Below, piece after piece: positions 10,790 through 46,311 of a DNA stretch of 50,115 nt. A program made the position numbers and the translations under genes. A model generated the notes under the pieces. That model saw only the letters and a program-made list of their open reading frames with translations. It made no database searches and had not been told where the DNA came from. The DNA lies in IMG/VR virus record IMGVR_UViG_3300012942_000059, positions 1-50,115 of that record; one strand, given 5' to 3'. Position 1 is the first letter of the stretch. Each line of letters begins with the position of its first letter. The stretch comes from a virus. Taxonomy: Duplodnaviria; Caudoviricetes.

Positions 10790-11308
10790 TTGCAGACCGC
10801 CAACATCATGCTCGCCCTTGGCGGCGATATGGGAACCACCGTTCCGAAATACGGCGTCACGGCGTCGGAAATCGCCGTGTTGATGGCGATCCACGGCAAC
10901 AGCGCCGTTCACGAGATCGAGCCGAAGGACAACATCGACCGCAGCGACCGTGACGAGATTCGACGGCTGCGCGAGATTTACGGTCGCGCCCGCATCCAGA
11001 CCGAAGAGGGCGACGTGGCGGCGGTAAATGCGCTGTTCCCCGGCGCCGCGGCGCGCGCCTACCAGAAGCTCGACGAACTGGAAATCGACCCGACCTTCTT
11101 CAAGGCAACGTCGCGCGCCAAGCCTGCGGACGCTCCGGTCGTCGGGGGCATGACGAAAGCCGAGCTCGTCGAACTGGCCGAGCAGAAGGGCGTCGAAATC
11201 GACCCGAAGGCGAAGAAGGCCGAGATCGCGGAAGCGGTGAAAGCCGCCGAAGCCGCCGAAGACGAGACGGAGACCAAGCCCGAAACCGACGAGAATCTGT
11301 TCGGCTGA
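10790..11308 (+). CDS. Hypothetical protein with C-terminal HeH/Rho-N-like motif
   Basis: TTG start with RBS AGGAG; MTKAELVELAEQKGVEIDPKAKKAEIAEAV; ends ENLFG. Confidence 0.7.
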   Translation: MQTANIMLALGGDMGTTVPKYGVTASEIAVLMAIHGNSAVHEIEPKDNIDRSDRDEIRRLREIYGRARIQTEEGDVAAVNALFPGAAARAYQKLDELEIDPTFFKATSRAKPADAPVVGGMTKAELVELAEQKGVEIDPKAKKAEIAEAVKAAEAAEDETETKPETDENLFG

Positions 11309-11338
11309 TAGCCGACGCATCCACGAGAAGGAAGAACG

Positions 11339-11599
11339 ATGACAACCATGCGCGCGAAAGTTCGTGTCTCTGCCGTGCTGCCGTATTCCGACGGGGATGG
11401 CGGCGTGAATTCGGAACGGCTGATGTTCCATGGCGTAGCACGGTCCGATTCGTACCCGGCCGATGGTTCGGATGAGAACAACACCTTCGCCAGGTTCTCG
11501 CCGTCTGTCGCCTTCGACATGCAGGTCGCCAATCCGGCTTTGATTGGCAAATTCGCGGTAGGCGACACGTTCTACGTCGATTTCACGCCGGCAGAGTAG
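11339..11599 (+). CDS. Hypothetical phage protein
   Basis: RBS AAGGAAG; MRAKVRV...ENNTFARFSPS...FYVDFTPAE. Confidence 0.75.
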   Translation: MTTMRAKVRVSAVLPYSDGDGGVNSERLMFHGVARSDSYPADGSDENNTFARFSPSVAFDMQVANPALIGKFAVGDTFYVDFTPAE

Positions 11600-11605
11600 T
11601 CCGGA

Positions 11606-12316
11606 ATGGCGCGCGACACGACACTCGTTAAGCTGCTCGATCTGCTACGGGTCGAAGCGCGCCTTTCGCTCAATCCTGCGCATAACGCGCAAGACCGATC
11701 GGCTCAGGTCACGCTTCTGCAGGCCGAGCAGGAGCGGCTTTGGGAAGACTTCGACTGGCCGCATCTGCGCGTGAAGCGCAAGGTCGCCGTACAGGCGGGC
11801 CAGCGTTACTACGCGATGCCGGAAGACATTCAAGTCGATCGGCTGGAAAAGCTTCAGATTTTCACGAACGGTCGCTGGTTCGATCTTCTGCCAGGCATCG
11901 GCGCCAACGAACTCGCGGCCTACAATTCCGATCTCGACCAGCGGTCCTATCCGCCGCGCCGATGGGAAATCTACGAAGACGGCAATATAGAGATATGGCC
12001 GATTTCGGACATCGACGGCGATGCCGACACCTTCGAAGGTTACATCCAGTTCATCGGCATCCGGAATCTTAATCCGCTTGTCGCCGATTCCGACAGGGCC
12101 GATCTCGACGATCGGATGCTGGCGCTTTATGTCGCCGCGAAGAAGCTGGCCGCCAGCGGCGCGAAAGACGCCAAGCTGAAACTTGACGAGGCGAATTCGC
12201 GGTACGCCAGGTTGCGCGGCCGGTTGACGCCGCGCGTGAAGTTCAAGCCGTTCTGCGGCGACCAGGCGCCGCCGTCGCGCAAGATTTTCGTCACGAATTA
12301 TCGCCCGCCTACCTGA
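11606..12316 (+). CDS. Head-to-tail adaptor (tail tubular A-like)
   Basis: Size and position before the nozzle gene; DFDWPHL and GQRYY motifs typical of podovirus adaptors. Confidence 0.7.
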   Translation: MARDTTLVKLLDLLRVEARLSLNPAHNAQDRSAQVTLLQAEQERLWEDFDWPHLRVKRKVAVQAGQRYYAMPEDIQVDRLEKLQIFTNGRWFDLLPGIGANELAAYNSDLDQRSYPPRRWEIYEDGNIEIWPISDIDGDADTFEGYIQFIGIRNLNPLVADSDRADLDDRMLALYVAAKKLAASGAKDAKLKLDEANSRYARLRGRLTPRVKFKPFCGDQAPPSRKIFVTNYRPPT

Positions 12317-12965
12317 AAACGCCGGCTCTCGTTATATGCTGATAGCCCTCGCCCCTTTTGATCCGGTTGACCGTGTGGCGGTCGACGCTGAGTTCACGCC
12401 CTATTTCGGCGCCGCTTCTCGGGTCGCACATGATCTGCTGTATCTGCTCGTCGGTAAGACGGCAGTTGGCGTGACGCCTTGTGCGAATGCCGCGCGGGCG
12501 TTGATTCGAATTCTGTTCGGAGTACGTCGCCCATTTGCAATTGCCGGGTTCGTAGTTCCCGTCGTTGTCTTTGCGCTCGATCGTAAGCCCTTTCGGGCGC
12601 TCGCCCATGTCTTCAAGAAAATTCTTAAAGGCGCGCCAGCGTTCGCAAACGGTGATACCGCGGCCAGCGTAGTCAACGTGGTGCAGGCACCTGTTGAGCA
12701 TGTCTTCCCACGTTTTGTAAGTGGGCGACACACGACCCCCCGCCGAATGGCCGTGCTTCCAAAGCCGCTTGCGATGCATGTCTGCTTTGAAACATCCGCA
12801 GGATCGCGTAGTTCCGCCAACGATCTTAGACGCCGCAACACGCACCATGTTGCCGCAGTCGCATTTGCACAACCAAAGCGGCTCCTTTTTGTTCGACCCG
12901 TCTCGACGGATAACGACCAGTCGCCCCGACTTTTTGCCGGTAAGGTCTCGTGCTTGCACGCCCAT
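12309..12965 (-). CDS. HNH homing endonuclease-like protein inserted antisense
   Basis: WLCKCDCG, TRSCGC, YAGRGITVCERW, TIERKDNDGNYEPGNCKWAT motifs; C-terminal HTH-like segment; RBS AAGGAG before ATG at 12965. Confidence 0.9.
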   Translation of the reverse strand: MGVQARDLTGKKSGRLVVIRRDGSNKKEPLWLCKCDCGNMVRVAASKIVGGTTRSCGCFKADMHRKRLWKHGHSAGGRVSPTYKTWEDMLNRCLHHVDYAGRGITVCERWRAFKNFLEDMGERPKGLTIERKDNDGNYEPGNCKWATYSEQNSNQRPRGIRTRRHANCRLTDEQIQQIMCDPRSGAEIGRELSVDRHTVNRIKRGEGYQHITRAGVFR

Positions 12966-13033
12966 GAAATCGGCTCCTTTCAACTTGCGCAACGAGATTA
13001 TCTCGTTGGAGCAGATTTGTAAAGGAGTTCACG

Positions 13034-24545: not shown

Positions 24546-24983
24546 ATGGAGTCCGACATCGTGCGAATCGAGCTCGCCGGGGCGCCAATGGGCAAGGAGC
24601 GCGTGCGCGTGACGCGCACCGGCCACGCCTACACGCCGGAACGCACGGTCAATTACGAATCGCGCCTGGCGCTGGCGGCGCAGATGGTCATGAACGGCCG
24701 CCCGTTGCTGGAAGGACCGTTGGCCGTGGTCGTGGAAGCGTACATGCCGATCGCCGCCAGCAAGCCGAAGAAATGGCAGGCCGCGGCGCTGTCGGGCCAG
24801 ATACGGCCGACGAAGAAGCCCGATTGGGATAATTTCGGAAAAATTCTTGACGCGCTTAACCTCGTCGTGTGGGCCGACGACGCGCAGATCGCCGACGGCC
24901 GGGTTTTGAAGTGGTACAGCGCGCGGCCGCGCATGGTCGTGCATGTGCGGAAGATCAACCAGGAAGAAGGAGTGTTTCAGTGA
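24546..24983 (+). CDS. rusA: RusA-family Holliday junction resolvase
   Basis: KKPDWDNFGKILDALN..WADDAQI motif; ends EGVFQ. Confidence 0.9.
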   Translation: MESDIVRIELAGAPMGKERVRVTRTGHAYTPERTVNYESRLALAAQMVMNGRPLLEGPLAVVVEAYMPIAASKPKKWQAAALSGQIRPTKKPDWDNFGKILDALNLVVWADDAQIADGRVLKWYSARPRMVVHVRKINQEEGVFQ

Positions 24984-25886: not shown

Positions 25887-26636
25887 GTGACGACCACCTA
25901 CCAGCTTATGCAGGGCGACTGCCTTGATTTGATGCGTTTTATTCCGGACGCATCGATCGATCTCATATTGGCCGATTTGCCCTACGGCACGACGCGGAAT
26001 AAGTGGGATTCCGTCATCCCGCTCGACGCGCTTTGGAAACAATATTGGCGCGTCGTTAAGGTAAACGGCGCGGTAGTTCTTACGGCGCAGACGCCCTTCG
26101 ACAAGGCGCTCGGCGCGTCGTGCTTGCAGCATCTCAAATATGAATGGCTTTGGGAGAAGCCGCGTGCAACCGGCCATTTAAACGTTAAAAAACAGCCGAT
26201 GAAGGCGCATGAAAACGTGCTCGTTTTCTACCGCTCGCAATGTCTCTACAACCCGCAAATGACTCCCGGCGAGAAGTACGCTGTCGGCGGCGGTGCGTCA
26301 AAAATGGACAACTATGGCCGTTTTTCAACGGCCCGCGAAAACGACGGGGCTCTCCGCTACCCGCGTAGCATCCAGAAGTTTGCGACCGAAACCGGATTTC
26401 ATCCGACCCAAAAACCCGTCGCCCTGATGGAGTACATGATCCGGACCTACACGGACGCCGGCATGACGGTGCTCGATAATGCGATGGGCTCCGGCACTAC
26501 CGGCGTTGCCGCCGGGAACACGGGCCGGAGTTTCATCGGCATCGAAAAATACCCCGACATTTTCAAAATAGCCGAAGGCCGAATCAAACCGGCCTTTTCG
26601 TCCGGAATGACGCGCGACATAGGCGTATTCGCATGA
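25887..26636 (+). CDS. DNA amino-methyltransferase (N6_N4 family, beta class, DLPY)
   Basis: ADLPYG motif IV, HPTQKPVAL, VLDNAMGSGTTG motif I; ends IGVFA. Confidence 0.9.
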   Translation: MTTTYQLMQGDCLDLMRFIPDASIDLILADLPYGTTRNKWDSVIPLDALWKQYWRVVKVNGAVVLTAQTPFDKALGASCLQHLKYEWLWEKPRATGHLNVKKQPMKAHENVLVFYRSQCLYNPQMTPGEKYAVGGGASKMDNYGRFSTARENDGALRYPRSIQKFATETGFHPTQKPVALMEYMIRTYTDAGMTVLDNAMGSGTTGVAAGNTGRSFIGIEKYPDIFKIAEGRIKPAFSSGMTRDIGVFA

Positions 26637-27994: not shown

Positions 27995-28663
27995 TTGCCA
28001 ATTGACATTCATATCAGCGCACACCCCGACCACGGCGACCTTTCGCATCAGATCGAAGAAGCGATGGCCGCTGTCGGATTTGTCCGTAATAGCGCGCGAC
28101 AGATCGTAGATCGCACGACCATCGCGAGCGTCCCGGCGTCGAAAGACCCGATCGTCGATGAGAGCGGCGCGGTCGACGGTGCCGCGGACAAGCCGCAGCG
28201 CGAACGCGGCCAGCCCGCGCCGGGCCGGAAGCGCCGCACCAAGGAAGAGATCGCCGAAGACGAGGCGGCCGACAAGGCCGACGCCGAAGCATCCGCCGTC
28301 CACGAAGAAAAGCCGCAGATCAGCACCGGCGAAGAGCGTGTCGGACCGGAAGACGATGCCGAGACCGTGGCGCAGGACACGGCCGACGAGAAAGCCGAGA
28401 GTGACGCCGCCAAGGCCGCTCGCGAGCCGGACAAGAAGCTGACGTTGGACGACGTGCGCAATGCGCTCGGCGGCTACGTCAAAAAGTTCGGTATGGCCGC
28501 CGTGCAGGAAGATGGCCCGAAGGTCATCAGCCTCGTGCTGAAGGACGACGCGAAGGTAAAGGTCTCCGACATTCCGGACGACCAGGCGACCATCCAGCGC
28601 GTCATCGACGGCGTGAACGAGATGATCGCCAAGAACCCCTTCCAGCGCGACAAGGTGGCGTGA
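27995..28663 (+). CDS. Hypothetical acidic protein preceding the DUF2800 gene
   Basis: TTG start with RBS AAAGGAG; PGRKRRTKEEI basic patch; C-terminal helical domain. Confidence 0.7.
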   Translation: MPIDIHISAHPDHGDLSHQIEEAMAAVGFVRNSARQIVDRTTIASVPASKDPIVDESGAVDGAADKPQRERGQPAPGRKRRTKEEIAEDEAADKADAEASAVHEEKPQISTGEERVGPEDDAETVAQDTADEKAESDAAKAAREPDKKLTLDDVRNALGGYVKKFGMAAVQEDGPKVISLVLKDDAKVKVSDIPDDQATIQRVIDGVNEMIAKNPFQRDKVA

Positions 28664-30246: not shown

Positions 30247-30888
30247 GTGGCATCTAAAAAGAGTATGTTTCGCGGAGAACTGTTCCGCACAGACGAAGGC
30301 GTTGTTTCCTACGCTTTCGGCCTCTTCAAATCCCGCACGAAGACGAGTGACGACGGTTCCACGCGCGAATCGTGGGACGCGACGCTTATCTTCCCCGCAT
30401 CGTATCGGCCGAAGTTGGAGGCCGAAATCGCCAAGGTCATCGTCGGCGAATGGGGTGAGAAAGGCATCAAGATGGCGAAGGATGGCCTGATCAAATCGCC
30501 GATTCTCGCCGGCGACGGCAAGGAAGCCCGCAACAAGGAAACCGGCGAGTTGCATCCGGGCATGGGCGCGGACAAGATTTTCATCCGCGTGCAGTCCAAC
30601 AAGGCCCCGGTTGTTCGCTACAAGGATCCGAACATCCCCGCGACGGAGGCGGAAGTCTATTCCGGCTGCCGCGGGTTCGGCGTCATCAACGGCTTCGCCT
30701 GGTACAATGCGAAGAACGGCAACGGCGTCTCCTTCGGCATCGAGTACTTCCAGAAGACCGGCGAGGGCGAGCGTATCGGCGGTAGCGGCGGTGTGAACGC
30801 GGCGGACTGGTTCGAGAAGATCGACGACACCGGCGACGCGCCCGAAGAGACGAAGACCGGCGCCGGAGCCGGTGGCCTTTTCGGCTGA
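30247..30888 (+). CDS. DUF2815 single-stranded DNA-binding protein
   Basis: GTG start with RBS GGAG; VYSGC..NGVSFG motif; acidic tail ending GLFG. Confidence 0.8.
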   Translation: MASKKSMFRGELFRTDEGVVSYAFGLFKSRTKTSDDGSTRESWDATLIFPASYRPKLEAEIAKVIVGEWGEKGIKMAKDGLIKSPILAGDGKEARNKETGELHPGMGADKIFIRVQSNKAPVVRYKDPNIPATEAEVYSGCRGFGVINGFAWYNAKNGNGVSFGIEYFQKTGEGERIGGSGGVNAADWFEKIDDTGDAPEETKTGAGAGGLFG

Positions 30889-30958: not shown

Positions 30959-31261
30959 ATGCCAAAGAAAGAGGCCGGGATCGGCCACAACAGCGACGGC
31001 GTTACGGAAACGTCACAGACCGTCGCGGCGGGTCAGCTCCGCGCCTTCATCGAACGTATCGAGCGGCTCGAGGAAGAGAAGAAGGCCCTGAGCGACGACG
31101 TCCGCGAAATCTACTCGGAAATGAAGGGCGTCGGCTTCGACACCAAGGCCGTCCGCACCATCATTCGTTGGCGCAAGAAGGACGCTGCGGAGCGGCAAGA
31201 AGAGGCGTCCATTCTTGAACTCTACGCCGGGGCGCTCGGCATGGTCGGCGTCTTCGGCTGA
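30959..31261 (+). CDS. GapR-like (DUF2312) DNA-binding protein
   Basis: [38 protein letters not shown]; ends VGVFG. Confidence 0.9.
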
Positions 31262-31452
31262 TGGCCCGCTTCGCGCAGACGACCATTCATGCCGAGATCA
31301 CCAGGACGACCGACAAGGCCGTCCTGGTGACGATCGACGGCGAAGATCACTGGATACCGCGCCGCGTCTGTCTTGACGGCGATGCGCTGGAAGTTGGCGA
31401 CGACGATCTTATCGTCGCGGACTGGTGGCTCGAAAAGGAGGGCTTGCTGTGA
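31261..31452 (+). CDS. Hypothetical phage protein
   Basis: TDKAVL..WIP..WWLEKEGL pattern; coupled to neighbours. Confidence 0.7.
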   Translation: MARFAQTTIHAEITRTTDKAVLVTIDGEDHWIPRRVCLDGDALEVGDDDLIVADWWLEKEGLL

Positions 31453-31997
31453 AACACGTAATGCTGGATTTGGAAACGCTCGGCACAATCCCCGGCGCTT
31501 CCGTCATCTCCATCGGAGCGGCCGAATTTGAACTCGACGGTTCGATCGGTCGCACCTTCAGCCAAAACATATCGGCAGCTTCTTGCCGGGAGATCGGTTG
31601 CGTCGAAGATCCCGCAACGCATGACTGGTGGGCCAAGCAGTCGAAAGAGGCGCAGGACCGGTTGACGAAGGGCCGGAAACACGTCGCCGAAGCCGCTGCG
31701 CTCTTTCACGCATGGTTCCAGAAATGCGGTGCCGACTTCGTATGGGGCAACGGCGCGACGTTCGACATCAGCTTGTGGGAGGCCATCTGCCGTAAGCTTG
31801 GCATCTCGGCGCCGTGGAAATTCTGGAACGTCCGCGACATGCGCACAGTGATCCATCTGTTCGATTTCGACGTGCGCGACATGAAACGTTCCGGCGTTCA
31901 CCACGACGCGCTCGACGATGTGAAATTCCAGATCACTTGCGTCAGCGCGGCGCTGAAGAAAGGCCGCGCGGGCGCGGTGGAAAGCGTCTTCGGATGA
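31449..31997 (+). CDS. DEDDh 3'-5' exonuclease
   Basis: MLDLETLG, WGNGATFD, HDALDD motifs; ends ESVFG. Confidence 0.9.
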   Translation: MKHVMLDLETLGTIPGASVISIGAAEFELDGSIGRTFSQNISAASCREIGCVEDPATHDWWAKQSKEAQDRLTKGRKHVAEAAALFHAWFQKCGADFVWGNGATFDISLWEAICRKLGISAPWKFWNVRDMRTVIHLFDFDVRDMKRSGVHHDALDDVKFQITCVSAALKKGRAGAVESVFG

Positions 31998-32224
31998 CGA
32001 TCGACGAAGCCCTGCGCGCCCGCGCCGGCGAGCGAATCAGCGTCACGGTATTCCCGGCTTCGTCGGGCTACCAGGCCAACATCTCGACGGACGGGAAGTC
32101 CTGGCGCGTCGAGATGGGCACCACCGCCGAGACGGCATTGAAAAAGGCGCTCGGCATTTTGCCGGGCGCATCGGGGCCGACGCTTGTCGCGCCCGAACCG
32201 ACATCAGGGAGCGTATTTGAATGA
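31994..32224 (+). CDS. Hypothetical protein
   Basis: ATGA coupling; ends GSVFE. Confidence 0.65.
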   Translation: MTIDEALRARAGERISVTVFPASSGYQANISTDGKSWRVEMGTTAETALKKALGILPGASGPTLVAPEPTSGSVFE

Positions 32225-32517: not shown

Positions 32518-33807
32518 ATGACACAGCCAACAGCGTACTACAACGAGATCGATCCATTCGCGGCCGCGTGGCTGCGGGAACTCATCAAAGCCGGCCACAT
32601 CGCGCCGGGCGACGTGGATGAAAGGAGTATCGAGGATGTCAGCCCCGACGACTTGCGAGGCTACCGCCAGTGTCATTTCTTCGCCGGGATCGGTGTCTGG
32701 TCCCACGCGCTCCGCCGAGCCGGATGGCCCGACGATCGCGAAGTCTGGACCGGAAGCTGCCCGTGCCCGCCGTTCTCGGCCGCCGGCAAAGGAAGCGAGT
32801 GTCCTAGCTGCGGCGGAAAAAGCTGTCTCTCGCATCCTATCGTCACAGCCGGATGGATATGTCTCGATTGCGGCGACGAGTGGCGCGGCGACGATCGACA
32901 CCTTCTCCCCGAGTTCATCCGCCTCAAGGGCCAGTGCCGACCTTCAGTCGTCTTTGGAGAGCAGGTTGCGAGCCGCGACGGCCGGCTGTGGCTCTACACT
33001 TTACGCGCTGTCATGGAAGAAGCTGGATATGCCGTCGGGGCCGCCGATCTGTGCGCTGCGGGCATCGGCGCGCCGCACATCCGGCAACGGCTCTTCTTCA
33101 CTGAAGAGCGGTTGGCCGACGCCGGACGCCCAAGCGATGAATGTCTTCGCGGACCCGGAGAAGCATCAGGAGCGCCGCGATCGGCTGAAAGCGAAGCATG
33201 GAAACGGCAATGGAGCGGGACTGCCGATAGGACAGGCGGCGCATCTCGCGGGATGGCCCACTCCGACGGTCGGGAACGCCTCCGGTTCGCAGATGGCGAA
33301 AGACGCCTCATCGACGGGCAAGCGGCCGGACGGTTCGAAGGCTACCGTGAGCCTGCCGCAAGTGGCGATGACGGCGGGATGGCGCAGTCCGAACACCGTG
33401 GATGCGAAGGGCGGGAACCGGCTCGGCGAAGGCCAGGTGCAACTGTGTCATCAATCTCTCTTGGCAGGGTGGCCGACGCCCATGGCCGGATCGCCGGGGA
33501 AACCGGGCCGCTACAATCCGGCGGGGAACAACGACAGCAGCCGGAAAACGGTCGATCTCTGCGCTACCCACGGCCCGGCCCGACTAACGGCATCTGGCGA
33601 GATGCTGACTGGCTCTTCTGCCGGGATGGAAAGTGGCGGCCAGTTGAACCCGGCACATTCCCGCTGGCTCATGGGTCTCCCGCCAGAGTGGGACGACTGC
33701 GCGGTTATGGCAATGCAATCGTTGCCCCGCTCGCGCAAACGTTCATCGAAGCGTTCCTCGACGCCGAAGCCGACGAACGTCTTCGACTGACGGGGGTGTT
33801 CGCATGA
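32518..33807 (+). CDS. C5-cytosine DNA methyltransferase, large (alpha) polypeptide
   Basis: YNEID, FFAGIG (I), GSCPCPPFS (IV), GEQV (VI), PHIRQR (VIII), LRGYGNAIV (X); ends TGVFA. Confidence 0.9.
32618..33790 (+). CDS. Nested alternative-frame polypeptide (beta subunit / TRD repeats of the C5 MTase); true start uncertain
   Basis: Open +1 frame with four GW(P/R)(T/S)P repeats and motif IX-like [16 protein letters not shown]; ends TNVFD. Confidence 0.75.
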
Positions 33808-34112
33808 CAAAAGTCGTCATCACGGACCACGCGCTGATCCGGTGGCTCGAGCGCGCCCGCGGCTTCGATCTTGAAATCTTCCGCGACGCCCTGGCCGAGA
33901 TTGCGCAGCCCTACGCCGATATCCGCGTCAAACAGGCCGAGATCGGCGGGCTGTGGTTCATCTTTCACGAAGACCGGCTGGTCACCGTCACGCCAGAGAA
34001 GCCGCGCCGCGCGCAAATGCTTCGTCATGATCGGGAATATTCGAACGGCACGGACGCGCCGCGCGAACGGGCGTCGTGGCAAATGAAGAAACGGCGGAAG
34101 GCGCATAAATGA
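33804..34112 (+). CDS. Hypothetical phage protein
   Basis: ITDHALIRWLER motif; coupled on both sides. Confidence 0.7.
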   Translation: MTKVVITDHALIRWLERARGFDLEIFRDALAEIAQPYADIRVKQAEIGGLWFIFHEDRLVTVTPEKPRRAQMLRHDREYSNGTDAPRERASWQMKKRRKAHK

Positions 34113-35140
34113 TTGAGATCATCCACGGCGATTGCCTCGCCGCGCTGGAATTGCTGCCGTCCGAAAGCGTCCACTGCATCGTCACGTCGCCGCCTTATTG
34201 GGGCCTTCGCGACTATGGCGTCGACGGCCAGATCGGCCTCGAACAATCGCTTGGCGAGCATATCGATCGGCTTGTAGAAGTGTTCGGCGAGGCCCGACGC
34301 GTTCTTCGAAAAGACGGAACGCTATGGCTCAACTACGGCGATGCCTACGCCAGCGCGCCGAACGGGCGTTCCGCCGCCGACACAAAAACACTCGGCAACG
34401 ATGATCGAACTTTCCGCGACAAACCGATCTCGACCGTCGGCCCCGTTCGCAAGTCATTCCGGCGAGACGGCGGTGCAGTCTTGCCAGTGATCCGCGCAGC
34501 AACGCCGGAACTGAAGGCGAAAGACCGCATGATGCTGCCCGCGCGTGTTGCGATCGCGCTGCAGGAATCTGGCTGGTGGATCCGCGACGAGATCATATGG
34601 CACAAGCCCAACCCGATGCCGATCAGCGTTCGCGACCGTACCACACCCGCGCACGAAATGCTGTATTTGTTGTCGAAGTCGGCTCGGTATTACTACGATC
34701 AAGAGGCGATCAAGGAGCCGATCGCCGCAGCGTCGAGAAAGCGGTACGCGCAGGAAACTCTGAATTCACAGACAGGCGGGTTTAAGCAGGAACAGTACGA
34801 AAGCGGCATCACCGGGCAGCGCGCCCGTTCCCGCCGGCCGGCGGAAATACTTAAAACGCTCGCAGGGCAGGAGAAACGCAACAGGCGCAGCGTCTGGACG
34901 ATTGGAACGAAGCCGTTCGCCGACGCCCACTTCGCCACCTTCCCGCCCGATCTTATACGGCCCTGTATCCTGGCCGGGTGCCCTGAAGGCGGTATCGTGC
35001 TCGACCCGTTCTTCGGCGCCGGCACGACCGGTCTTGTCGCTCGCGAACTAGGCCGACGCTGCATCGGGATCGAATTGAACCCTGCTTATATCGAGATCGC
35101 GAAAAAGCGTCTCGGCCTCGCCTACGGGGTGTTCGCATGA
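34109..35140 (+). CDS. DNA amino-methyltransferase (N6_N4 family, SPPY, likely m4C)
   Basis: VTSPPYW, HFATFP, VLDPFFGAGTT motifs; ends YGVFA. Confidence 0.92.
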   Translation: MIEIIHGDCLAALELLPSESVHCIVTSPPYWGLRDYGVDGQIGLEQSLGEHIDRLVEVFGEARRVLRKDGTLWLNYGDAYASAPNGRSAADTKTLGNDDRTFRDKPISTVGPVRKSFRRDGGAVLPVIRAATPELKAKDRMMLPARVAIALQESGWWIRDEIIWHKPNPMPISVRDRTTPAHEMLYLLSKSARYYYDQEAIKEPIAAASRKRYAQETLNSQTGGFKQEQYESGITGQRARSRRPAEILKTLAGQEKRNRRSVWTIGTKPFADAHFATFPPDLIRPCILAGCPEGGIVLDPFFGAGTTGLVARELGRRCIGIELNPAYIEIAKKRLGLAYGVFA

Positions 35141-37368
35141 CGCTCGAGATCGACTTCGAGACCCGTTCCGCCGTCGATCTGAAGAAGCGCGGCGTCTACA
35201 ACTATATGGCATCCGAGACAACCGAACCGCTAATGGCGTCCTACTCGATTAACCAGAATCCGGTTAATCGCTGGCGACCGCCGGCGCCGTGCCCGCCCGA
35301 TATCGTCGAGCATGTCACGGCTGGAGGCATGATTTCGGCCCATAACGCTGCGTTCGAACGGTTGCTGTGGCAGTACGTCCTGACGCCGCGCTACGGATGG
35401 CCCGCTGTGAAAACGGAGCAATTCCGCTGCACGGCGGCCACGGCGGCGGCCATGTCGCTGCCGCGTGCGCTCGGCGATCTCGGCGCGGCGCTCGATCTCA
35501 CGATCCAGAAGGACAAGGAAGGCTCGCGGCTCATCCGGAAATTCTCGATCCCGCGCCGCGTCCGCAAGGGCGAAGAGCCGGGCGTCTACTTCAATCAGCC
35601 GCACGAGCACCCGGAAGAATTCGAGCGCTTCCACGACTACTGCGATGATGATGTGCGCACGGAAGCCGGTGCCGACCGCCGCATGGTTCCGCTGTCGGCT
35701 GACGAGCAGGACGTCTATGTGCTCGGGGAGATCATCAACGACCGCGGCATCCGCATCGATCGACGATCGGCACGCGCCGCGCTGCGGCTGGCGGAGAAGG
35801 CCAAGCTGAAGCTTGACCGCGAATTGCGGCTTGTGACCGGCGGTTATGTTCCGTCGACGACGCAGCCGGGCAAGCTGGTCGAGTGGGTCGAGAGCCAAGG
35901 CGTGCCGATGTCGTCGGCGGCCAAGGCCGAGCTCGAGGCGTTGCTGGAACTGGACGATCTGCCGGCGAACGTCCGCCGCGCGATAGAGATACGCCAGGAA
36001 GCGGCGAAGACATCCGTGTCGAAGTTGAAAGCGATGCTGGACCGCGCTTCCGACGATGGCCGCGTGCGCGGCACGTCGATCTACCACGGCGCCGGCACGG
36101 GCCGTTTCCAGTCGGTCGGCGTTAATTTCTCGAATCTTCCGCGGCCCCGTCGCGAGTTCGACGACGCGCATCTCGACCGCGCGACGCTGTTCAAAGCATT
36201 CCGGCACGAGGATCCGGACTTCCTGCAGTTCCTATACGGCGACACGCTCGGCCGCCCGCTGCATCTCGTCTCCGACGCTATACGCGGCTTCATCATGGCC
36301 GCGCCCGGTCACGATCTTGTACAGGCCGACTATTCCGGCATCGAAGGCGCCGTCATCGCATGGTCGTCGGGCGAGCATTGGAAGGTGCGGGCGATGCACG
36401 AGATCATCGCCGATCCCGATCTGCCGGATATGTATCGCCGGACAGCCGCCGGTATTCTCGGCTTGCCGGTCGACGTCGTGACGAAGAAACATTGGGCGCG
36501 TCAAGCCGTTGGCAAGGTGAGCGAGCTCGCCCTTGGCTTCGGCGGCGGTGTGTCGGCCTTCCATTCGATGTCGAAGAACTACGGCGTCAAGCTCGATCCG
36601 CTGTTCGGGCCGGTGTGGGCGACCGCCGACGAAGAACGCCGCGAACGTGCGGTCAAGCGCTACGAGGCGAACCTGAAGCGCGGCAATGAAAAGACCGACG
36701 AACTGTCGCGCGAAGCATGGTTGGCTTGCGAGATCATCAAGGTCGGCTGGCGCGAGACGAACCCGGCCATAAAGAAAGGCTGGCACACTCGCGAAGACGC
36801 CGTGCGCGACGCGATTCGCAACCCGGGAACGCAGTTCACGGCGCTAAAGTGTTCCTACCTTGTCGCCCGCGGCTTCCTGTGGTGCCGTCTGCCGAGCGGC
36901 CGTTGCCTGGCCTACGGCTCGCCGCGGCTGCGTGACCAGGTATGGGCGGAAGTCAAACTCGACGACGGGGCATGGTGCGACGCCGAAGTGATGGACCGCG
37001 AGACGGCCGAGCGCATGGCTGTGCGCGGAACGTGTCGAATCAACGGTTCGACGTCGCCTTCGATCTCGGCGCTCGGCGTCAATTCCGTCACGAAGAAATG
37101 GACGCGCTCGCATCTCTACGGCGGCTTGTTGGCCGAGAACGACACCCAGGCCATCGCCCGCGATCTGCTCGTCAACGGCATGCGCAAGGCCGAAGCGGCC
37201 GGTTACCCGATCATCGCTCACGTCTACGACGAGATGATCGCCGAAGTGCTGCGCGGAACCGGGGATCTGGCAGCGTTCGAAAAGCTGATCTGCGAATTGC
37301 CGGAATGGGCCGCGGGGATGCCTTTGACGGCGGGCGGATGGCGGGGAAAGCGGTACCGCAAGGACTGA
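35137..37368 (+). CDS. Family A DNA polymerase with 3'-5' exonuclease domain
   Basis: IDFET and AHNAAFE exo motifs; TGR; motif A ADYSGIE; motif B RQAVGKVSELALGFGGG; motif C HVYDE. Confidence 0.93.
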   Translation: MTLEIDFETRSAVDLKKRGVYNYMASETTEPLMASYSINQNPVNRWRPPAPCPPDIVEHVTAGGMISAHNAAFERLLWQYVLTPRYGWPAVKTEQFRCTAATAAAMSLPRALGDLGAALDLTIQKDKEGSRLIRKFSIPRRVRKGEEPGVYFNQPHEHPEEFERFHDYCDDDVRTEAGADRRMVPLSADEQDVYVLGEIINDRGIRIDRRSARAALRLAEKAKLKLDRELRLVTGGYVPSTTQPGKLVEWVESQGVPMSSAAKAELEALLELDDLPANVRRAIEIRQEAAKTSVSKLKAMLDRASDDGRVRGTSIYHGAGTGRFQSVGVNFSNLPRPRREFDDAHLDRATLFKAFRHEDPDFLQFLYGDTLGRPLHLVSDAIRGFIMAAPGHDLVQADYSGIEGAVIAWSSGEHWKVRAMHEIIADPDLPDMYRRTAAGILGLPVDVVTKKHWARQAVGKVSELALGFGGGVSAFHSMSKNYGVKLDPLFGPVWATADEERRERAVKRYEANLKRGNEKTDELSREAWLACEIIKVGWRETNPAIKKGWHTREDAVRDAIRNPGTQFTALKCSYLVARGFLWCRLPSGRCLAYGSPRLRDQVWAEVKLDDGAWCDAEVMDRETAERMAVRGTCRINGSTSPSISALGVNSVTKKWTRSHLYGGLLAENDTQAIARDLLVNGMRKAEAAGYPIIAHVYDEMIAEVLRGTGDLAAFEKLICELPEWAAGMPLTAGGWRGKRYRKD

Positions 37369-37548: not shown

Positions 37549-37749
37549 ATGAAGCGCAAGAAGACCTACCGGAAGAAGTACGGCCATCCGACGGAGATGC
37601 TAGCCGTCCGCGTGCCGGCTCCGTTGCATCGGGCCGTCAAGTCGCGCGCCAAGCGGGAGAAGAAGCCGAAGTCCGAAACGGTCGTCGGTATCCTGGCCGC
37701 TGCGCTCGCTCCGGAGGCTCCTGCCGAGAAAGAGAGCGTGTTCGAATGA
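37549..37749 (+). CDS. Ribbon-helix-helix (Arc-like) DNA-binding protein
   Basis: RBS GAGGA; MLAVRVPAPLHRAVKSRAKREKKPKSETVVGILAAAL; ends ESVFE. Confidence 0.7.
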   Translation: MKRKKTYRKKYGHPTEMLAVRVPAPLHRAVKSRAKREKKPKSETVVGILAAALAPEAPAEKESVFE

Positions 37750-38176: not shown

Positions 38177-38379
38177 TCGCCATGCGCCACCCTTCAACAT
38201 ACACGACCATGCCGTTCGGCGCGATGCGCGTCATGGAAGTCGATGCCGGGACCGACGTTACCGACGAACGCACCGGCGAAACAATCACAGTCGACGACGA
38301 GACCGCCGCCGTAAAAGGCCGCGTCATCTTTTGCACGAAGAAGATGTACGAGGCCATAAAAGCGAGATGTCTTCAATGA
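38173..38379 (+). CDS. Hypothetical protein
   Basis: Coupled small ORF. Confidence 0.55.
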   Translation: MIAMRHPSTYTTMPFGAMRVMEVDAGTDVTDERTGETITVDDETAAVKGRVIFCTKKMYEAIKARCLQ

Positions 38380-38585
38380 CTTTCGACGAAGCCCGCGCCA
38401 CCTATCCTCGCTGGTCGTTCGGCGTCTATGCGCTGGAACCGGGCGCGGGCGTCACGCTCGAGATACTGACCGAAGACGGCCAGTCCTTTTCATTCGAGGC
38501 CGCGACGCTAGACGACGCGCTATCGGCGGCGTTCCCGCCGGCGCCGGAAGAACCGCAACCCGAGCCAAGCGACGTGTTTGCATAG
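38376..38585 (+). CDS. Hypothetical protein
   Basis: ATGA coupling; ends SDVFA. Confidence 0.65.
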   Translation: MTFDEARATYPRWSFGVYALEPGAGVTLEILTEDGQSFSFEAATLDDALSAAFPPAPEEPQPEPSDVFA

Positions 38586-40941: not shown

Positions 40942-40981
40942 GCGTTCCCGCAAAATCCTGACGACCATGACGCGAGGGACC

Positions 40982-43099
40982 GTGAACTCCGAAACCGGCA
41001 ATCCTTTCCTGCGCTTCCACGCGCTCGGCTACACACGTATCGTACCAGTGACGCCGCCAAAGTGCGAAGTGTCGCCCCGTTCGACATTCGCGAAACGCCT
41101 AGCCGCAGCCAAAGGCGATCCGAAGAAAGATCCCCGCGGCAAGGCGCCCGGCGTGAAGGGCGACGATGGTTGGCGCGGTATCGACTTCACCAAGGTCGAA
41201 GCCGAATTGCGCGATCTCGACATATGGCAGCGCATGGGCGCGTCGGTCGGCCTGAAGACGGGTCGCGGCCTGGCCTTCGTCGACGTCGATACGCTGAAGG
41301 CTGAATGGGCCGCGGCGGTCAAAGCCATTTTCGAGAAACATCTCGGCACGAACATATTCTGGCGCGTCGGCAACTACCCGAAAGCCGGGTTCATGCTCTT
41401 GACCGACGAGGACTACGTTTACCATTGCGTCGCTTTTGGCGATCGCGACGAGCACGGCCGGCTGACAAGCCGCGTCGAGATATTGTGCGAAGGCCGCCAA
41501 TTCGTCGCGCACGGCATCCACCCCGCCACCGGGAAACCCTACCGCTGGCCGCAAGGCATACCGCCGCGCAAGGACCTGGTTTACGTGCCGGCGGCCAAGC
41601 TCGACGCCATTCTGCAGGAAATAGCCGAAGCGATGCCGCAGGCCGAGCCGGTCAAGCACGAAGGCGCGCAATCCGACGATCCAGTCGATCCCGAAAAGCT
41701 GAAGGGCGATCCGGTCCTGGTCGAGCGCGCGGTAAAAGCCATGCGCAACACGGCTGGCCGGGACGAATACGTTGCGGTCGGCTACGCGCTCAAAGGCGCC
41801 TTGCCCGACGATCCGGCCCTTGCCTTCGAACTCTATGCCGACTGGTGCGACAGATGGGAAGAAGGCGAGAACGACCCCGATGTGGTTGCGGCGGAATGGG
41901 CGCGCATGACGCTGCCGCCGCGCATCGGCGCCGATTGGCTCTACGCGCGAGCACACGAATGGAGCGGCGGTGCGTTCACGCCGCATTTCGATCCGGTCGC
42001 CGCGGCGCAGGTGAATGACGCCGCGGCCGAATCGCTGTTCCCGCCCGAAGAGAAGAAGCAGCGCAAGTTCGATATCCTGTCATTCGGCCAAGCTGCCGAC
42101 GCCGCGCTCGGCGACGTCTCGGCGCCGCTCATCAAGGGACTGTTGGACCAGGGCGCGATGACGGTGCTGTATGGCCCCTCCAACGTCGGCAAGACATTCG
42201 TTGCGATGGATATCGGCTATCACATCGCGGCCGGCACGGAATACGCCGGCATGCGCGTCACCAAGGGCGCGGTGCTGTACGTCGCGGCCGAAGGCGGGCG
42301 CGGCGCCAAGCGCCGGGTCAGAGCGCTGCGGGAGAAATACGGCGCCGACGACGTGCCGTTCTTCCTGTTGCCGTCCAGCGTGGACTTGCGGCGGCCTGAT
42401 GCGGATCTCCGACCGTTGATCTCGGCCATTCGCGAGATGATGGCGACGCTGCGCGAGCGTGGTTTCGATCTGGTGCTGATTGTCATCGATACGCTGTCGC
42501 GCGCCATGGCCGGCGGCGATGAAAACTCGTCGGTCGACATGGGCCACATTGTCACGCATTTCGACGCGCTGCGGGCCGCGACTTCGGCCCACTTGTTGGT
42601 TGTGCATCACAGCGGCAAGAACGTCGCCATGGGCGCGCGCGGGCATTCGCTGCTACGCGCGGCCACGGACACGGAGATAGAAATCGGCGAAGGCGCGATC
42701 GAAGTCACCAAGCAACGCGATCTGGATAAGTCCTGGTCGTCTGGCTTCGTCTTGGAGACGCGGGTTTTGGGTGTGGACGGTGACGGCGATCCTGTGACGT
42801 CGTGCACGGTGCGGCTATGCGGCAAGGATACGGTCTCTGCGCCCGCGCCGCGCGCCCCTACGGCACGGGAAGAGGTTGCCCTCGCCGCCGTTGAGGCGCT
42901 GCAGGCTAGTAGCAGGGACGGTGAGGCGGGCGTTTCCGCTGCCGAACTATGCGCGTATATGGTTTTGCAAGGGGACAATTTGTCCGACAAGAACGCACGT
43001 TATCTACTCGCCAGCTTGATAGAGAAGCGGCTTATCGAGAAGATCGGGCGCGGCCGGTATAGGGTTGTCGAGCGCAAAGAAGATAGCGTTTTCGAGTAA
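40982..43099 (+). CDS. Primase-helicase (Prim-Pol, PriCT-2-like, AAA_25/RepA-type SF4 helicase)
   Basis: GKAP, VDVD, QFVAHGIHPATG primase motifs; GPSNVGKT; VIDTLSR; HHSGK..GARGHS; ends DSVFE; GTG start with RBS GAGGG (ATG 40967 alternative). Confidence 0.92.
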   Translation: MNSETGNPFLRFHALGYTRIVPVTPPKCEVSPRSTFAKRLAAAKGDPKKDPRGKAPGVKGDDGWRGIDFTKVEAELRDLDIWQRMGASVGLKTGRGLAFVDVDTLKAEWAAAVKAIFEKHLGTNIFWRVGNYPKAGFMLLTDEDYVYHCVAFGDRDEHGRLTSRVEILCEGRQFVAHGIHPATGKPYRWPQGIPPRKDLVYVPAAKLDAILQEIAEAMPQAEPVKHEGAQSDDPVDPEKLKGDPVLVERAVKAMRNTAGRDEYVAVGYALKGALPDDPALAFELYADWCDRWEEGENDPDVVAAEWARMTLPPRIGADWLYARAHEWSGGAFTPHFDPVAAAQVNDAAAESLFPPEEKKQRKFDILSFGQAADAALGDVSAPLIKGLLDQGAMTVLYGPSNVGKTFVAMDIGYHIAAGTEYAGMRVTKGAVLYVAAEGGRGAKRRVRALREKYGADDVPFFLLPSSVDLRRPDADLRPLISAIREMMATLRERGFDLVLIVIDTLSRAMAGGDENSSVDMGHIVTHFDALRAATSAHLLVVHHSGKNVAMGARGHSLLRAATDTEIEIGEGAIEVTKQRDLDKSWSSGFVLETRVLGVDGDGDPVTSCTVRLCGKDTVSAPAPRAPTAREEVALAAVEALQASSRDGEAGVSAAELCAYMVLQGDNLSDKNARYLLASLIEKRLIEKIGRGRYRVVERKEDSVFE

Positions 43100-44047: not shown

Positions 44048-44051
44048 TGGC

Positions 44052-44315: not shown

Positions 44316-44370
44316 GGTGAAAGTCTCCTGTTTCGGTTTGTCGTTGGTGTCGGTCGTCATTCGGGACGCG

Positions 44371-44682: not shown

Positions 44683-44733
44683 GGTCGTCTCTCCGTTTCG
44701 GTGTTGCGTGTGTCGGTCGTCATTCCAGACGCG

Positions 44734-45060: not shown

Positions 45061-45112
45061 GGTCGTTTTCTCCGTTTCGGTGTTGCGTGTGTCGGTCGTC
45101 ATTCAGGACGCG

Positions 45113-45424
45113 CTAGGAACGGCTTTGCCGCAATTCGGGGTGATCCGGCCACGTGGGGCAGGAGTAGCAGTCACCGCGGGCTGCGAGAGTCCCGTTTTCG
45201 CGGACGGGGAAGCGCGTGTTTTCCAGCCAATCGCGGTCGCTTGCGAACTGGACGGGGTAAACCGGCCAACCCGGCCAACGCATGTTTCCGCCGCCGGCGG
45301 CCTCGTTTGCCCATGCCGGCTTATGCTCTTTCGTGAAACGGTGGGCGTAGCGCGCCAAGGCACGGCGTTGATCGGCAGGCGACAGGTCGATTCCGAGTTT
45401 TCCGTTAGGGAAAGCGGGCGTCAT
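45113..45424 (-). CDS. Hypothetical early protein
   Basis: Repeat-borne RBS GGAG; YAHRFT.EH.PAWA..QFASDRDWLENT. Confidence 0.7.
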   Translation of the reverse strand: MTPAFPNGKLGIDLSPADQRRALARYAHRFTKEHKPAWANEAAGGGNMRWPGWPVYPVQFASDRDWLENTRFPVRENGTLAARGDCYSCPTWPDHPELRQSRS

Positions 45425-45495
45425 GGTCGTTTCTCCGTTTCGGTGTTGCGTGCGAGTATTCTGGAAACCCCGCCGGAGCGGGGAAACCGGAAGAC

Positions 45496-45672
45496 TCAGC
45501 GCGATTTGGCGATCGCAGTGAACGCGCGGCGATATTCCAGCGCCTCGCGGTAGGTATCACAGCGCACCTTGTCCAATAGATTGCCAGCGGTGTCGCGAAG
45601 GACGACTCGGAACCAGCCGTTTTCCTTCTCGAAGATGACCGTGCCGCATTGAAATTCACGAACCATGTACAT
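45496..45672 (-). CDS. Hypothetical early protein (first of the leftward operon)
   Basis: RBS GAGGGG; directly downstream of the promoter at 45709-45737. Confidence 0.65.
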   Translation of the reverse strand: MYMVREFQCGTVIFEKENGWFRVVLRDTAGNLLDKVRCDTYREALEYRRAFTAIAKSR

Positions 45673-45708
45673 TGATCTGCGCCCCTCAATTTGTATGTCG
45701 ATTTGTCT

Positions 45709-45737
45709 TTTGTATGTCGTTTTGTTCGGCACGTCAA
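45709..45737 (-). promoter_or_regulatory. Leftward early promoter with tandem TTTGTATGTCG boxes
   Basis: TTGACG-17bp-TACAAA; boxes at 45690-45700 and 45709-45719. Confidence 0.7.
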
Positions 45738-45843
45738 GCGACAAAATGAACAAAATTAGACAGCGCGTCGACGGCGCTCTATCCTGCGATGGTGATTTTA
45801 GATATAAGCGCTTGCTTATGAAACTCATTTCGGAAGCGTAACG

Positions 45844-46311
45844 ATGGCGCGAAATTCGGGACGTCTCAGTCGTCAACAGCAACGGTTTGTGGAAGTGATG
45901 GTCGAGACGGGCAACGCGACATATTCCGCGGCGAAAGCCGGCTACTCGTCGCCGCAGCCGCGCGGCTCGCAAAACATGCAAACGCCGGCAATCCAAGAAG
46001 CCGTGCGCGCCGCCCAGGTGGCGCGGCTGCATAACGATCTGTTGCCGAAAGCGCTCGGCGCCCTCGACGACGCCCTGACAAAGCCGGCGATCGCCACAAA
46101 AGACCGGATTCAAGCCGCAAAGGTCGTTATCCAGTACGCCTTTGGCGACCGGGCCGGCGGCGCGATGAAATCACCTGCGGAGATGTCGCCGGACGAGATC
46201 ACGCAGGCCCTCGAGTGGCTGAAAAGCGAGCTCGCCGATCGCGCCAGGCCAGCCGTGATCGAGGCTGAGCCGATCGACGAGAAAGCGCAGGATCCCGGCG
46301 TTTTCGACTAG
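45844..46311 (+). CDS. terS: Terminase small subunit
   Basis: LSRQQQRFV..GNATYSAAKAGYS N-terminal HTH typical of TerS; ends PGVFD. Confidence 0.85.
   Translation: MARNSGRLSRQQQRFVEVMVETGNATYSAAKAGYSSPQPRGSQNMQTPAIQEAVRAAQVARLHNDLLPKALGALDDALTKPAIATKDRIQAAKVVIQYAFGDRAGGAMKSPAEMSPDEITQALEWLKSELADRARPAVIEAEPIDEKAQDPGVFD

Follow-up and report, generated by a model that had tools for sequence, protein, structure and literature searches.

A short C-terminal tag on unrelated, mostly DNA-acting proteins of a clade of temperate phages as a candidate docking label

The complete IMG/VR virus record IMGVR_UViG_3300012942_000059 was analyzed over its full length of 50,115 bp, which is referred to below as the window. 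The record has direct terminal repeats and a G+C content of ∼62%, and it contains an integrase gene, a repressor gene, virion genes, genes for a small terminase subunit (TerS) and an HNH endonuclease, and a replication module. The module comprises a RusA resolvase, an SNF2 helicase, a protein designated F23, a DUF2800 PD-(D/E)XK nuclease, an SSB (a protein that binds single-stranded DNA [ssDNA]) of the Enc34/T7 gp2.5 type, a GapR-like protein, an Rv2179c-like exonuclease, three DNA methyltransferases, a family-A DNA polymerase (PolA), and a Prim-Pol/AAA_25 primase-helicase. Rfam and tRNA scans of the window gave no matches. The subject of this study is a short peptide at the extreme C terminus of many of these proteins, [G/S/D/N]-[V/I/L/A]-F-[D/E/G/A/S]-COOH, which is referred to here as the tag. 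In agreement with a preliminary description of the sequence, the tag was found genome-wide on nonhomologous proteins, most of which act on DNA (Table 1).

All 15 endings listed in that description are present at the stop codons named there and have the residues given for them. Thirteen are of the form x-V-F-x, and two, with stops at 11308 and 30888, are of the form x-L-F-G. These assignments rest on the stop codons alone, and gene starts are uncertain. As had been noted, all of the available Val, Phe, and stop codons are used: the 13 Val codons are GTG (5), GTT (3), GTC (3), and GTA (2), the Phe codons at the same sites are TTC (10) and TTT (3), and the stop codons of all 15 endings are TGA (11), TAG (3), and TAA (1). 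When genes were called with a self-trained codon-usage caller that is blind to the motif, 14 of the 72 genes called in the window ended in [AVIL]-F-x (the caller keeps only one frame of the overlap that ends at 33790 and 33807). With an internal [AVIL]F dipeptide rate of 0.93% (2450 of 264644 positions), the binomial P value for this count is 6e-15, which substantiates the enrichment over chance that had been claimed. The suggested tabulation of endings in related phages also revealed an enrichment. In the window and 19 related records that were analyzed whole, [AVIL]F followed by exactly one residue was found at the C terminus of 155 of 1295 genes, compared to 4 to 17 genes at each of 11 other C-terminal offsets. 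The dipeptide was at the extreme end, with no residue after it, in 6 of the 1295 genes.

Most of the functional labels that had been proposed from the sequence held up, namely, RusA, two N6_N4 methyltransferases, the GapR-like protein, the Rv2179c-like exonuclease, the C5 methyltransferase, the primase-helicase, TerS, the Enc34-type SSB, and the HNH endonuclease. The label that did not was that of a ribbon-helix-helix protein at 37390 to 37749, for which no Pfam or PHROG family was found. The tag is missing in the window from PolA, the SNF2 helicase, the integrase, the repressor, and the virion proteins, as had been stated, and also from the DUF2800 nuclease.

Table 1. Tagged genes of the window and two untagged genes considered as candidate receptors
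Feature	Position	Strand	Remarks
F4 gene, NLFG end	10790..11308	+	C-terminal part resembles endonuclease VII / Arc-like PHROGs; orthologues tagged in 11/19 genomes
HNH endonuclease, GVFR end	12309..12992	-	phrog_374, E 2e-57; TAG stop, no overlapping start codon
RusA resolvase, GVFQ end	24546..24983	+	Pfam domain stops at residue 135 of 145; clade orthologues tagged 11/12
N6/N4 DNA methyltransferase, GVFA end	25887..26636	+	Domain match
T7 gp2.5 / Enc34-type SSB (DUF2815), GGLFG end	30247..30888	+	∼34-residue disordered linker; orthologues tagged 16/20
GapR-like DNA-binding protein, ends ...ALGM-VGVFG	30959..31261	+	Tag lengthens the chromosomal GapR end, ...ALGM-x, by 4-5 residues
Rv2179c-like 3'-5' exonuclease, SVFG end	31449..31997	+	Domain match
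F26 small protein, SVFE end	31994..32224	+	Orthologues tagged 9/10
C5 cytosine methyltransferase (frame A), GVFA end	32518..33807	+	Domain match and annotated methylase homologue
Nested open reading frame (frame B), NVFD end	32618..33790	+	Open 32522-33790; start uncertain, ATG at 32618 or 33137
N6/N4 DNA methyltransferase, GVFA end	34109..35140	+	Domain match
F34 small protein, SVFE end	37549..37749 (start possibly 37390)	+	Orthologues tagged 5/5
F18 small protein, DVFA end, TAG stop	38376..38585 (start possibly 38139)	+	Orthologues tagged 15/16
Prim-Pol / AAA_25 primase-helicase, SVFE end	40982..43099	+	TAA stop, then intergenic region
Small terminase subunit, GVFD end, TAG stop	45889..46311 (start possibly 45844)	+	Orthologues tagged 13/18
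Family-A DNA polymerase, untagged, conserved end ...KRYRKD	35137..37368	+	Candidate receptor by T7 analogy
F23, untagged	27995..28663	+	Weak candidate receptor

A profile of the motif was derived from 161 tags, which were defined with F or L required at position -2. Position -4 is G (59), S (39), D (33), or N (15), and position -3 is V (59), I (43), L (42), or A (16). Position -2 is F in 150 tags and L in 11, all of the latter from a single genome (G007), and the last residue is D (44), G (43), A (22), S (22), or E (21). The positions upstream are richer in A, E, P, and G: the commonest residues are E (28), G (28), A (18), P (14), S (11), T (10), and L (10) at position -5 and A (30), E (24), G (17), D (15), P (11), K (11), T (9), and R (6) at position -6. 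The mean net charge over the last 12 residues is -1.4, with E and D enriched 1.4- to 2.9-fold at some positions.

The search for related loci with a single primase-helicase sequence returned none; with an alignment as the query, 80 IMG/VR loci (L004 to L083), among 558 relatives, were obtained. In the 26 loci of close relatives (L004 to L029), 96 of 783 called genes were tagged, versus 12 of 1008 genes in the 54 distant loci (L030 to L083), which have little beyond the helicase domain in common. Prophage loci of the clade in GTDB genomes had the tag on 34 of 284 genes, compared to 11 of 1265 genes in all other loci, many of which are from the same bacterial order; the background frequency of the tag is ∼1%. 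The hosts of the clade prophages include Methylobacterium, Aureimonas, Chelatococcus, Xanthobacter, Bosea, Methylopila, Arsenicitalea, Rhizobium tibeticum, and others. Fifteen of the 19 related genomes, which are of ∼48 kb, have 7 to 13 F-type tags among 47 to 73 genes. The picture does not depend on the gene caller, because two deposited GenBank annotations agree with it: 14 of the 69 coding sequences of the cultured Rhizobium phage RHph_N65 (host, Rhizobium phaseoli) and 11 of the 75 coding sequences of EBPR siphovirus 2 are tagged. The tag carriers form a clade of temperate ∼48-kb phages that comprises the window, prophages of Hyphomicrobiales, RHph_N65, and EBPR siphovirus 2.

The same protein families tend to be tagged throughout the window and the 19 related genomes. 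Regularly tagged families are SSB, TerS, RusA, F4, the GapR-like protein (13 of 20), the primase-helicase (14 of 20), and the small proteins F18, F26, and F34 (counts for the other families are in Table 1), and methyltransferases are tagged as well. The HNH endonuclease of RHph_N65 ends in GVFG. PolA, the integrase, the repressor, F23, and most virion families are never tagged, and the SNF2 helicase, the DUF2800 nuclease, and three virion families have a tag in only one or two genomes each.

Homologues outside the clade lack the tail, a comparison that the preliminary description had suggested. The most direct comparison is that of GapR: 60 homologues of 85 to 88 residues that end in ...ALGM-x, including chromosomal proteins of Mesorhizobium, are all untagged, and 34 of the other 60 hits are tagged, typically with the ending ...ALGM-x-G-V-F-G, which makes them four or five residues longer. 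Most RusA homologues are also untagged; among the 150 best 50%-cluster representatives, the tag was found on 6 (5 of the first 30 and 1 of the next 120). Pfam domains of the window proteins stop 6 to 20 residues short of the C terminus, and in the AlphaFold2 model of the SSB the core has pLDDT values of >90 and residues 180 to 213, the last 34, have values of ∼44, which indicates disorder. Judged from these comparisons, the tag is an add-on.

The preliminary description had further proposed that the constraint is on the peptide rather than on the DNA. Linkers, residue swaps, codons, and in-frame placement all bear this out. Among the best 120 of the 247 primase-helicase homologues in the protein collection (44 to 74% identical), 108 end in [AVILMC]-F-x, and the 10 to 20 residues ahead of the tag are of low complexity and cannot be aligned. 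On the basis of sequence comparison, this conservation is the strongest single result for a constraint at the level of the peptide. Position -3 changes in the relatives only among V, I, L, and A, and every synonymous codon is seen. The DNA pattern RGNGTNTTY lies in frame at gene ends in 11 of its 13 occurrences on the plus strand of the window, versus 1 of 14 on the minus strand.

Within a genome, the tags of different proteins tend to have the same residue at position -3. The window, G009, and G019 are of the V type, G001 and G005 are of the A type, G003, G010, G011, and RHph_N65 are of the I type, and G004 and G014 are of the L type. Over nine nonhomologous families, 185 concordant pairs were observed, compared to 90.2 ± 6.9 after shuffling, and none of 5000 shuffles reached 185. 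In this test the -3 residue was permuted among genomes within each family (100 cells), and SSB, in which the residue is always L, was excluded. G007 differs at the next position: its orthologues of F-tagged genes have x-[V/A/L]-L-x in 11 of 12 tags, and the Leu is encoded by five different codons. Two of its proteins retain the earlier tag. The SSB ends in ...GAGAGGLFG-ASGGSALD, with the old tag internal and a new one appended, and the GapR-like protein ends in ...ALEIF-SVLD, with the ancestral tag internalized and a fresh tag added. Additional L-type genomes were sought via proteins P0060 and P0113, and only records already in the set were found.

A related ending was observed in EBPR siphovirus 2, in which gp35 (L222:15980-16669), a putative SSB on the basis of its position and glycine-rich tail, ends in ...GGAGSLFG-NQ, that is, the usual tag plus two extra residues. 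This resembles the internalized old tag of the G007 SSB.

That the ends of a dozen unrelated genes changed in concert can, in our view, be explained only by a reader common to them all, the preference of which has altered. The co-variation within genomes points to one shared, co-evolving receptor. Thus, the common partner that had been suggested for the tagged proteins is supported insofar as a single partner is concerned; the host β sliding clamp, one of the partners named at that time, is weakened by the results described below. The phage polymerase, also named then, is still a candidate, to which the core of the T7-type SSB and F23 are added here.

It is moderately probable, in our judgment, that the tag is a plug by which its carriers would dock on a single receptor, common to all of them and located at or close to the phage DNA, so that replication, modification, resolution, and packaging proteins would be gathered. 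This C-terminal short linear motif is joined by a short, variable, disordered linker to ∼10 to 15 otherwise unrelated DNA-transaction proteins (the T7-type SSB, the primase-helicase, the GapR-like protein, RusA, the exonuclease, three methyltransferases, TerS, the HNH endonuclease, the EndoVII/Arc-like protein, and small open reading frames). The Phe and the aliphatic residue would fill a hydrophobic pocket of the candidate receptor, and the free carboxylate one residue past the Phe would be read by the same single receptor; the tagged proteins would thereby be gathered at one place on the phage DNA. Less firmly, and by analogy to T7 gp2.5 and gp4, the receptor may be phage encoded and part of a T7-like replisome; the core of the gp2.5-type SSB and the family-A polymerase are the two possibilities. 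As the specificity of this receptor drifted from phage to phage, all of the tags would be dragged along.

The SSB core and PolA were considered first because of the precedent of the T7 and Enc34 tails, and by this analogy they are the leading candidate receptors. The SSB matches Pfam Enc34_ssDNA-bd (E value, 3.4e-17) and, with a Foldseek probability of 1.0, the structures 4klk, 5odl, and 1je5, and its fold matches those of DUF2815, Enc34 ORF6, and T7 gp2.5. Binding of the polymerase and of the primase-helicase is reported for the tails of T7-type SSBs. In T7 itself, the polymerase gp5, of family A, is bound by the tails of gp2.5 and gp4, which end in Phe, and the gp2.5 tail also binds the groove of the SSB; in the Enc34 crystal the tails rest on the β-sheet of neighboring SSB molecules (PMC12339929, PMC5686142). 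Suppressors of T7 tail mutations are reported to map to the gene for the polymerase (reference cited in PMC12339929). A scan for G007-specific changes at conserved columns gave one striking result, SSB Q169F. Gln169 is kept in 17 of 18 aligned SSBs, including ones that are 24 to 26% identical, and Phe is found only in G007 (L101:154-858). From the alignment, this substitution may be a compensating pocket change in the sole genome in which F has changed to L; it is one case and is taken as a lead.

F23 is a weak candidate for the receptor. It was found by profile search in 18 of 18 related records with many tags (the window, the source of the query, is excluded from this count), and it is missing from the sparsely tagged or untagged genomes G015, G016, and G024; G013 gave a weak partial hit. 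This pattern of presence and absence may reflect a single evolutionary event. The protein evolves fast and has 385 homologues in the protein collection. Its N-terminal domain is small, and its C-terminal domain, of three helices, is confidently modeled and is duplicated in G001, G004, and G005; the protein also has linkers that are acidic and disordered and a basic stretch (RERGKPAPGRKRRTKEEIAEDEAA-like) that is conserved. No Pfam, PHROG, or PDB sequence relative of F23 was found, and there was no fold match (best E value, 2.7).

Several results weigh against the docking of the tags to a shared, phage-encoded receptor. The Phe is penultimate rather than last as in T7, and the tails are only mildly acidic. 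In the single-chain AlphaFold2 model the tail of the SSB is left undocked on its own core. Receptor columns that track the tag type were sought in 15 genomes by mutual information and as class-specific columns in 26 families (including PolA, SSB, DUF2800, SNF2, F23, the primase, and virion proteins), and nothing above noise was found. G015 retains a few tags without F23. The concordance statistic ignores the relatedness of the genomes, and the number of independent switches is consequently small: approximately one switch gave A, one or two gave I, two gave L, and one replaced F by L. In the PolA tree, however, G000 (V type), G001 (A type), and G004 (L type) are in one tight clade, and the L type arose twice. 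Finally, tags that adapt to a new host protein follow an easier evolutionary path than a phage receptor that has to change jointly with a dozen tags. This consideration favors a host-encoded receptor and retains a variable host protein or a protease adaptor among the candidates. The column scan also drew attention to the virion protein F5 (window 11606-12316), in which four columns are common to the two independent L-type genomes. F5 of G004 and F5 of G014 are only 46% identical, so recent transfer does not account for the shared columns, which were judged to be due to chance and were dropped.

A more specialized form of the docking reading, which we regard as having a minor but real chance of being correct, is that the tag is a private addressing code. 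Through a single four-residue C-terminal plug, a phage hub (the SSB core, the polymerase, or the scaffold-like F23) would collect the DNA-acting proteins, from those of replication to those of methylation, resolution, and packaging, and divergence of the code would prevent cross talk with co-resident or superinfecting relatives. The V/I/L/A residue at position -3 and F versus L at position -2, which differ between related phages, would be the variable elements of the code, and the hub and the tags would co-evolve like a lock with a dozen keys.

The main rival to a docking label is a degron. A host or phage protease or adaptor would read [VILA]-F-x-COOH and ensure a rapid turnover of the DNA-acting enzymes, for instance, so that their leaky expression in the lysogen does less damage. 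C-degrons typically lie at a fixed distance from the free C terminus, as in those read by ClpX (ssrA) and Tsp, and the tag does so as well. The integrase and the repressor, which need to be stable in the lysogen, are untagged, as are the virion proteins, and a host-encoded reader would explain why all of the tags shift together after a change of host. However, the tag is carried most constantly by the SSB, a protein required in stoichiometric amounts, and next by the primase-helicase, and an ssrA-like degron (ClpX C-motif 1) ends in two or three nonpolar residues, such as LAA. The 161 tags differ from such ends, and from the likewise nonpolar ends of Tsp tags, in that the last residue is polar or small, mostly D, G, A, S, or E. 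The tag is also present in EBPR siphovirus 2. The record of this phage carries a CRISPR match labeled CAP, which we take to stand for Candidatus Accumulibacter, a betaproteobacterium that would be the host, so that the reader would have to be widely conserved and hence ill suited to genome-specific tuning. Furthermore, the tail of T7-type SSBs is reported to be a docking element (PMC12339929, PMC5686142). A degron therefore seems unlikely.

A second rival is that the aliphatic-Phe pair occupies subsite I of the host β sliding clamp, which would act as a toolbelt in the way that T4 gp45 does for gp43, gp33, and gp55. An LF moiety alone is reported to bind the clamp, many clamp motifs are C-terminal, and clamps of different organisms bind the same ligands (PMC11139829). 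In T4, three unrelated proteins have interchangeable C-terminal epitopes on variable linkers (PMC2988020). The -4 residue of the tag (S/D/N/G) resembles the S/D of QL[SD]LF, and the phage has no recognizable clamp gene of its own: no match with an E value of ≤1 to PF00712, PF02916, or PF00705 was found in the complete 50-kb genome. F23 was considered as a hidden clamp and rejected, as it is helical and partly disordered and has neither a PDB sequence match nor a fold match. Against binding to the clamp, the Gln and the aliphatic residue that define the clamp motif, four and three residues before the Phe, are not enriched (L at position -5 is at 0.8 times background, and Q at position -6 is outside the eight commonest residues), and a clamp motif has no need for exactly one residue after the Phe. 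Eleven lysogen hosts, the prophages of which are of the V, I, and L types, have the same residues at the 18 positions of the clamp pocket, except for one L177M. The clamp cannot drive the V/I/L/A or F-to-L co-variation, because its pocket is the same whatever the type of tag. In addition, other prophages of Hyphomicrobiales hosts lack the tag. These considerations leave the clamp as a distinctly improbable receptor. Taken together, the tag in EBPR siphovirus 2 and the untagged prophages of Hyphomicrobiales favor a reader encoded by the phage over one encoded by the host.

Alternatively, each tail might mimic ssDNA and fold back in an autoinhibitory manner into the DNA-binding site of its own protein, in which case there would be no common receptor. 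Most of the tagged proteins bind DNA, and the T7 gp2.5 tail is reported to compete with ssDNA for its own groove (PMC12339929, PMC5686142), but we consider such a cis plug very improbable: selection in a set of unrelated DNA-binding folds would not arrive each time at one and the same set of four residues, equally far from the C terminus, unrelated tails would not change together within a genome, and the tail of the SSB is not docked in cis in the AlphaFold2 model.

A signal in the nucleic acid had to be weighed because the 13 sites have a DNA consensus, RGCGTNTTCGNN-TRA, and 7 of 14 tagged window genes overlap or abut the next start codon. The consensus could be a Shine-Dalgarno sequence plus spacer for a downstream start (translational coupling) or a recombination joint, with the peptide as a by-product, and several of the tagged genes have ATGA with a G-rich stretch 7 to 11 bases upstream. 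This reading, to which we assign almost no probability, is already contradicted by the sequence data: four tags (12309, 38585, 43099, and 46311) are followed by TAG or TAA without a start codon nearby, coupling to a start codon is nearly as frequent in untagged window genes (17 of 58), the third base of the -3 codon is free and the first and second bases vary only among the codons for V, I, L, and A, five different Leu codons stand in for the Phe codon in G007, and neither the other frames nor the opposite strand show an enrichment of the motif.

Two of the tagged frames share the same DNA. Frame A, the C5 methyltransferase, aligns with residues 3 to 339 of the 342-residue methylase gp12 of EBPR podovirus 2 (49% identical), and this end-to-end alignment with an annotated methylase led to rejection of the possibility that the two frames are a single frameshifted methyltransferase gene. 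The protein that frame B would encode contains GWPTP repeats, and G016 has a homologue of it. Both frames are open over the same ∼1.25 kb in three divergent genomes, the window, G003 (A, 40889-42241; B, 40932-42185), and G012 (A, 9150-10430; B, 9442-10413), and both end in a tag in each of them (A/B endings GVFA/NVFD, SIFE/SIFD, and DVFA/GIFD, respectively). From these comparisons, A and B are probably a fully nested gene pair. A megablast search of 23 kb of the window against GenBank phages gave no match beyond one methylase stretch, 33572 to 33752, which lies inside the dual-coding region; over 147 to 181 nucleotides its DNA is 85 to 91% identical to that of methylase genes in 77 phages, the hosts of which include Escherichia, Burkholderia, Klebsiella, Xanthomonas, and Edwardsiella. 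This conservation at the nucleotide level would fit a constraint on two frames.

Several neighboring genes are of additional interest. Positions 24980 to 25456 encode a protein with a dATP/dGTP diphosphohydrolase N-terminal domain (MazZ-like; E value, 8e-30), and directly after it, at 25453 to 25812, lies a gene for a protein related to nucleoside 2-deoxyribosyltransferase and MazG. Along with the three methyltransferases, these genes hint at editing of the nucleotide pool or modification of DNA bases. The large terminase subunit is family F7 (window 3992-5635), whose orthologue in RHph_N65 (43776-45446) is annotated as such. Relatives of F7 have a conserved extreme C terminus of their own, ...G-G-F-COOH, with a GF end in 10 of 18 orthologues and GGFG in 2 more; the copy in the window ends in ANGI, unlike the ...GGF of its relatives. 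The C terminus of PolA is conserved and basic, ...KRYRK[DE]. The polymerase of G005 (34889-37969, minus strand) is a single open frame of 1126 residues that matches in two pieces (residues 1 to 466 and 466 to 742), and the 1045-residue polymerase gp51 of EBPR siphovirus 2 (L222:26691-29828) likewise gives a two-piece match. The pattern suggests that both polymerases have an intein-like insertion and that its site is the same in the two.

The tag can be compared to several known systems. T4 gp43, gp33, and gp55 have highly similar, interchangeable C-terminal clamp-binding epitopes of hydrophobic and acidic residues on divergent, unstructured linkers, and these epitopes dock on one hub bound to DNA (PMC2988020). 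As in T4, unrelated proteins of one phage share short C-terminal epitopes behind divergent linkers, but there are three such proteins in T4 versus 10 to 15 in the window phage. T4 encodes its own hub, gp45, whereas a clamp gene was not found in the window phage. The tag has a strict register with a penultimate Phe, and its co-variation within genomes sets it apart. T7 shares with the window phage a gp2.5-fold SSB, a primase-helicase, and a family-A polymerase, and in both the SSB and the primase-helicase have disordered tails with a Phe. The T7 tail is strongly acidic with the Phe last, whereas the tags have one residue after the Phe and a net charge of about -1.4. Only two proteins are tagged in T7; the window phage also tags methyltransferases, a resolvase, a terminase subunit, the HNH endonuclease, and small open reading frames. 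The bacterial β-clamp motif, Q-phi-x-[L/M]-[F/L] or QL[SD]LF, is likewise short, often C-terminal, and made of an aliphatic-Phe pair after a small or acidic residue, and it is common to many DNA enzymes that bind one hub, as is proposed for the tag (PMC11139829). Unlike this motif, the tag lacks the Gln and the first aliphatic residue, has a single fixed residue after the Phe, and prefers V/I to L/M.

The tip of Escherichia coli SSB, ...DDDIPF, is a hydrophobic and aromatic C-terminal end on a disordered linker that organizes genome-maintenance proteins. There, one tail serves many partner pockets; the arrangement in the window phage would be the reverse, with many tails implying one pocket. 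In form only, the tag also resembles two other C-terminal ends, that of p97, L-Y-G-COOH, and the HbYX motif (hydrophobic-Tyr-any-COOH) found in proteasomal ATPases. The pattern is the same: the last residue is variable, the one before it is aromatic and follows an aliphatic one, and the carboxylate is free and is read by the receptor. HbYX has Tyr where the tag has Phe, and its receptors and that of p97, proteasome alpha-rings or PUB/PUL domains, have no evident counterpart in the window phage. A penultimate Tyr was found in 0 of 161 tags, a weak comparison with HbYX because the definition of the tag itself required F or L at that position. From its sequence features, the tag appears to be of the hub-binding C-terminal peptide kind, unusual for its breadth and its concerted evolution. 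The preliminary description had not recognized it as a described system, and searches of the literature, which did not extend to supplementary files, likewise turned up no description of a phage-wide C-terminal tag of this kind. A tag on up to ∼15 proteins of one phage thus appears to be undescribed.

Recruitment of proteins to a hub through short peptides is a central organizing principle of replication and repair, as exemplified by the clamp-binding motif, the PIP box, and the SSB tip. In phages, such hub-peptide systems are known for only two or three proteins at once (T7 and T4). In the phages described here, a single tetrapeptide marks up to a fifth of the genes, with functions in replication, modification, recombination, and packaging, and it yields a ready list of proteins expected to meet at one site. 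The natural series of V, I, L, and A at position -3 and of F and L at position -2 is available for mapping of the receptor, and the cultured phage RHph_N65, with its known host R. phaseoli, makes the different readings directly testable. The tag also provides a sequence mark for real small open reading frames and overlapping genes in these genomes; if the tag is an addressing code, its presence could decide which open reading frames are translated, such as the frame nested in the C5 methyltransferase gene. If the code is orthogonal between phages, it would offer a simple, portable tag for recruiting cargo to phage DNA.

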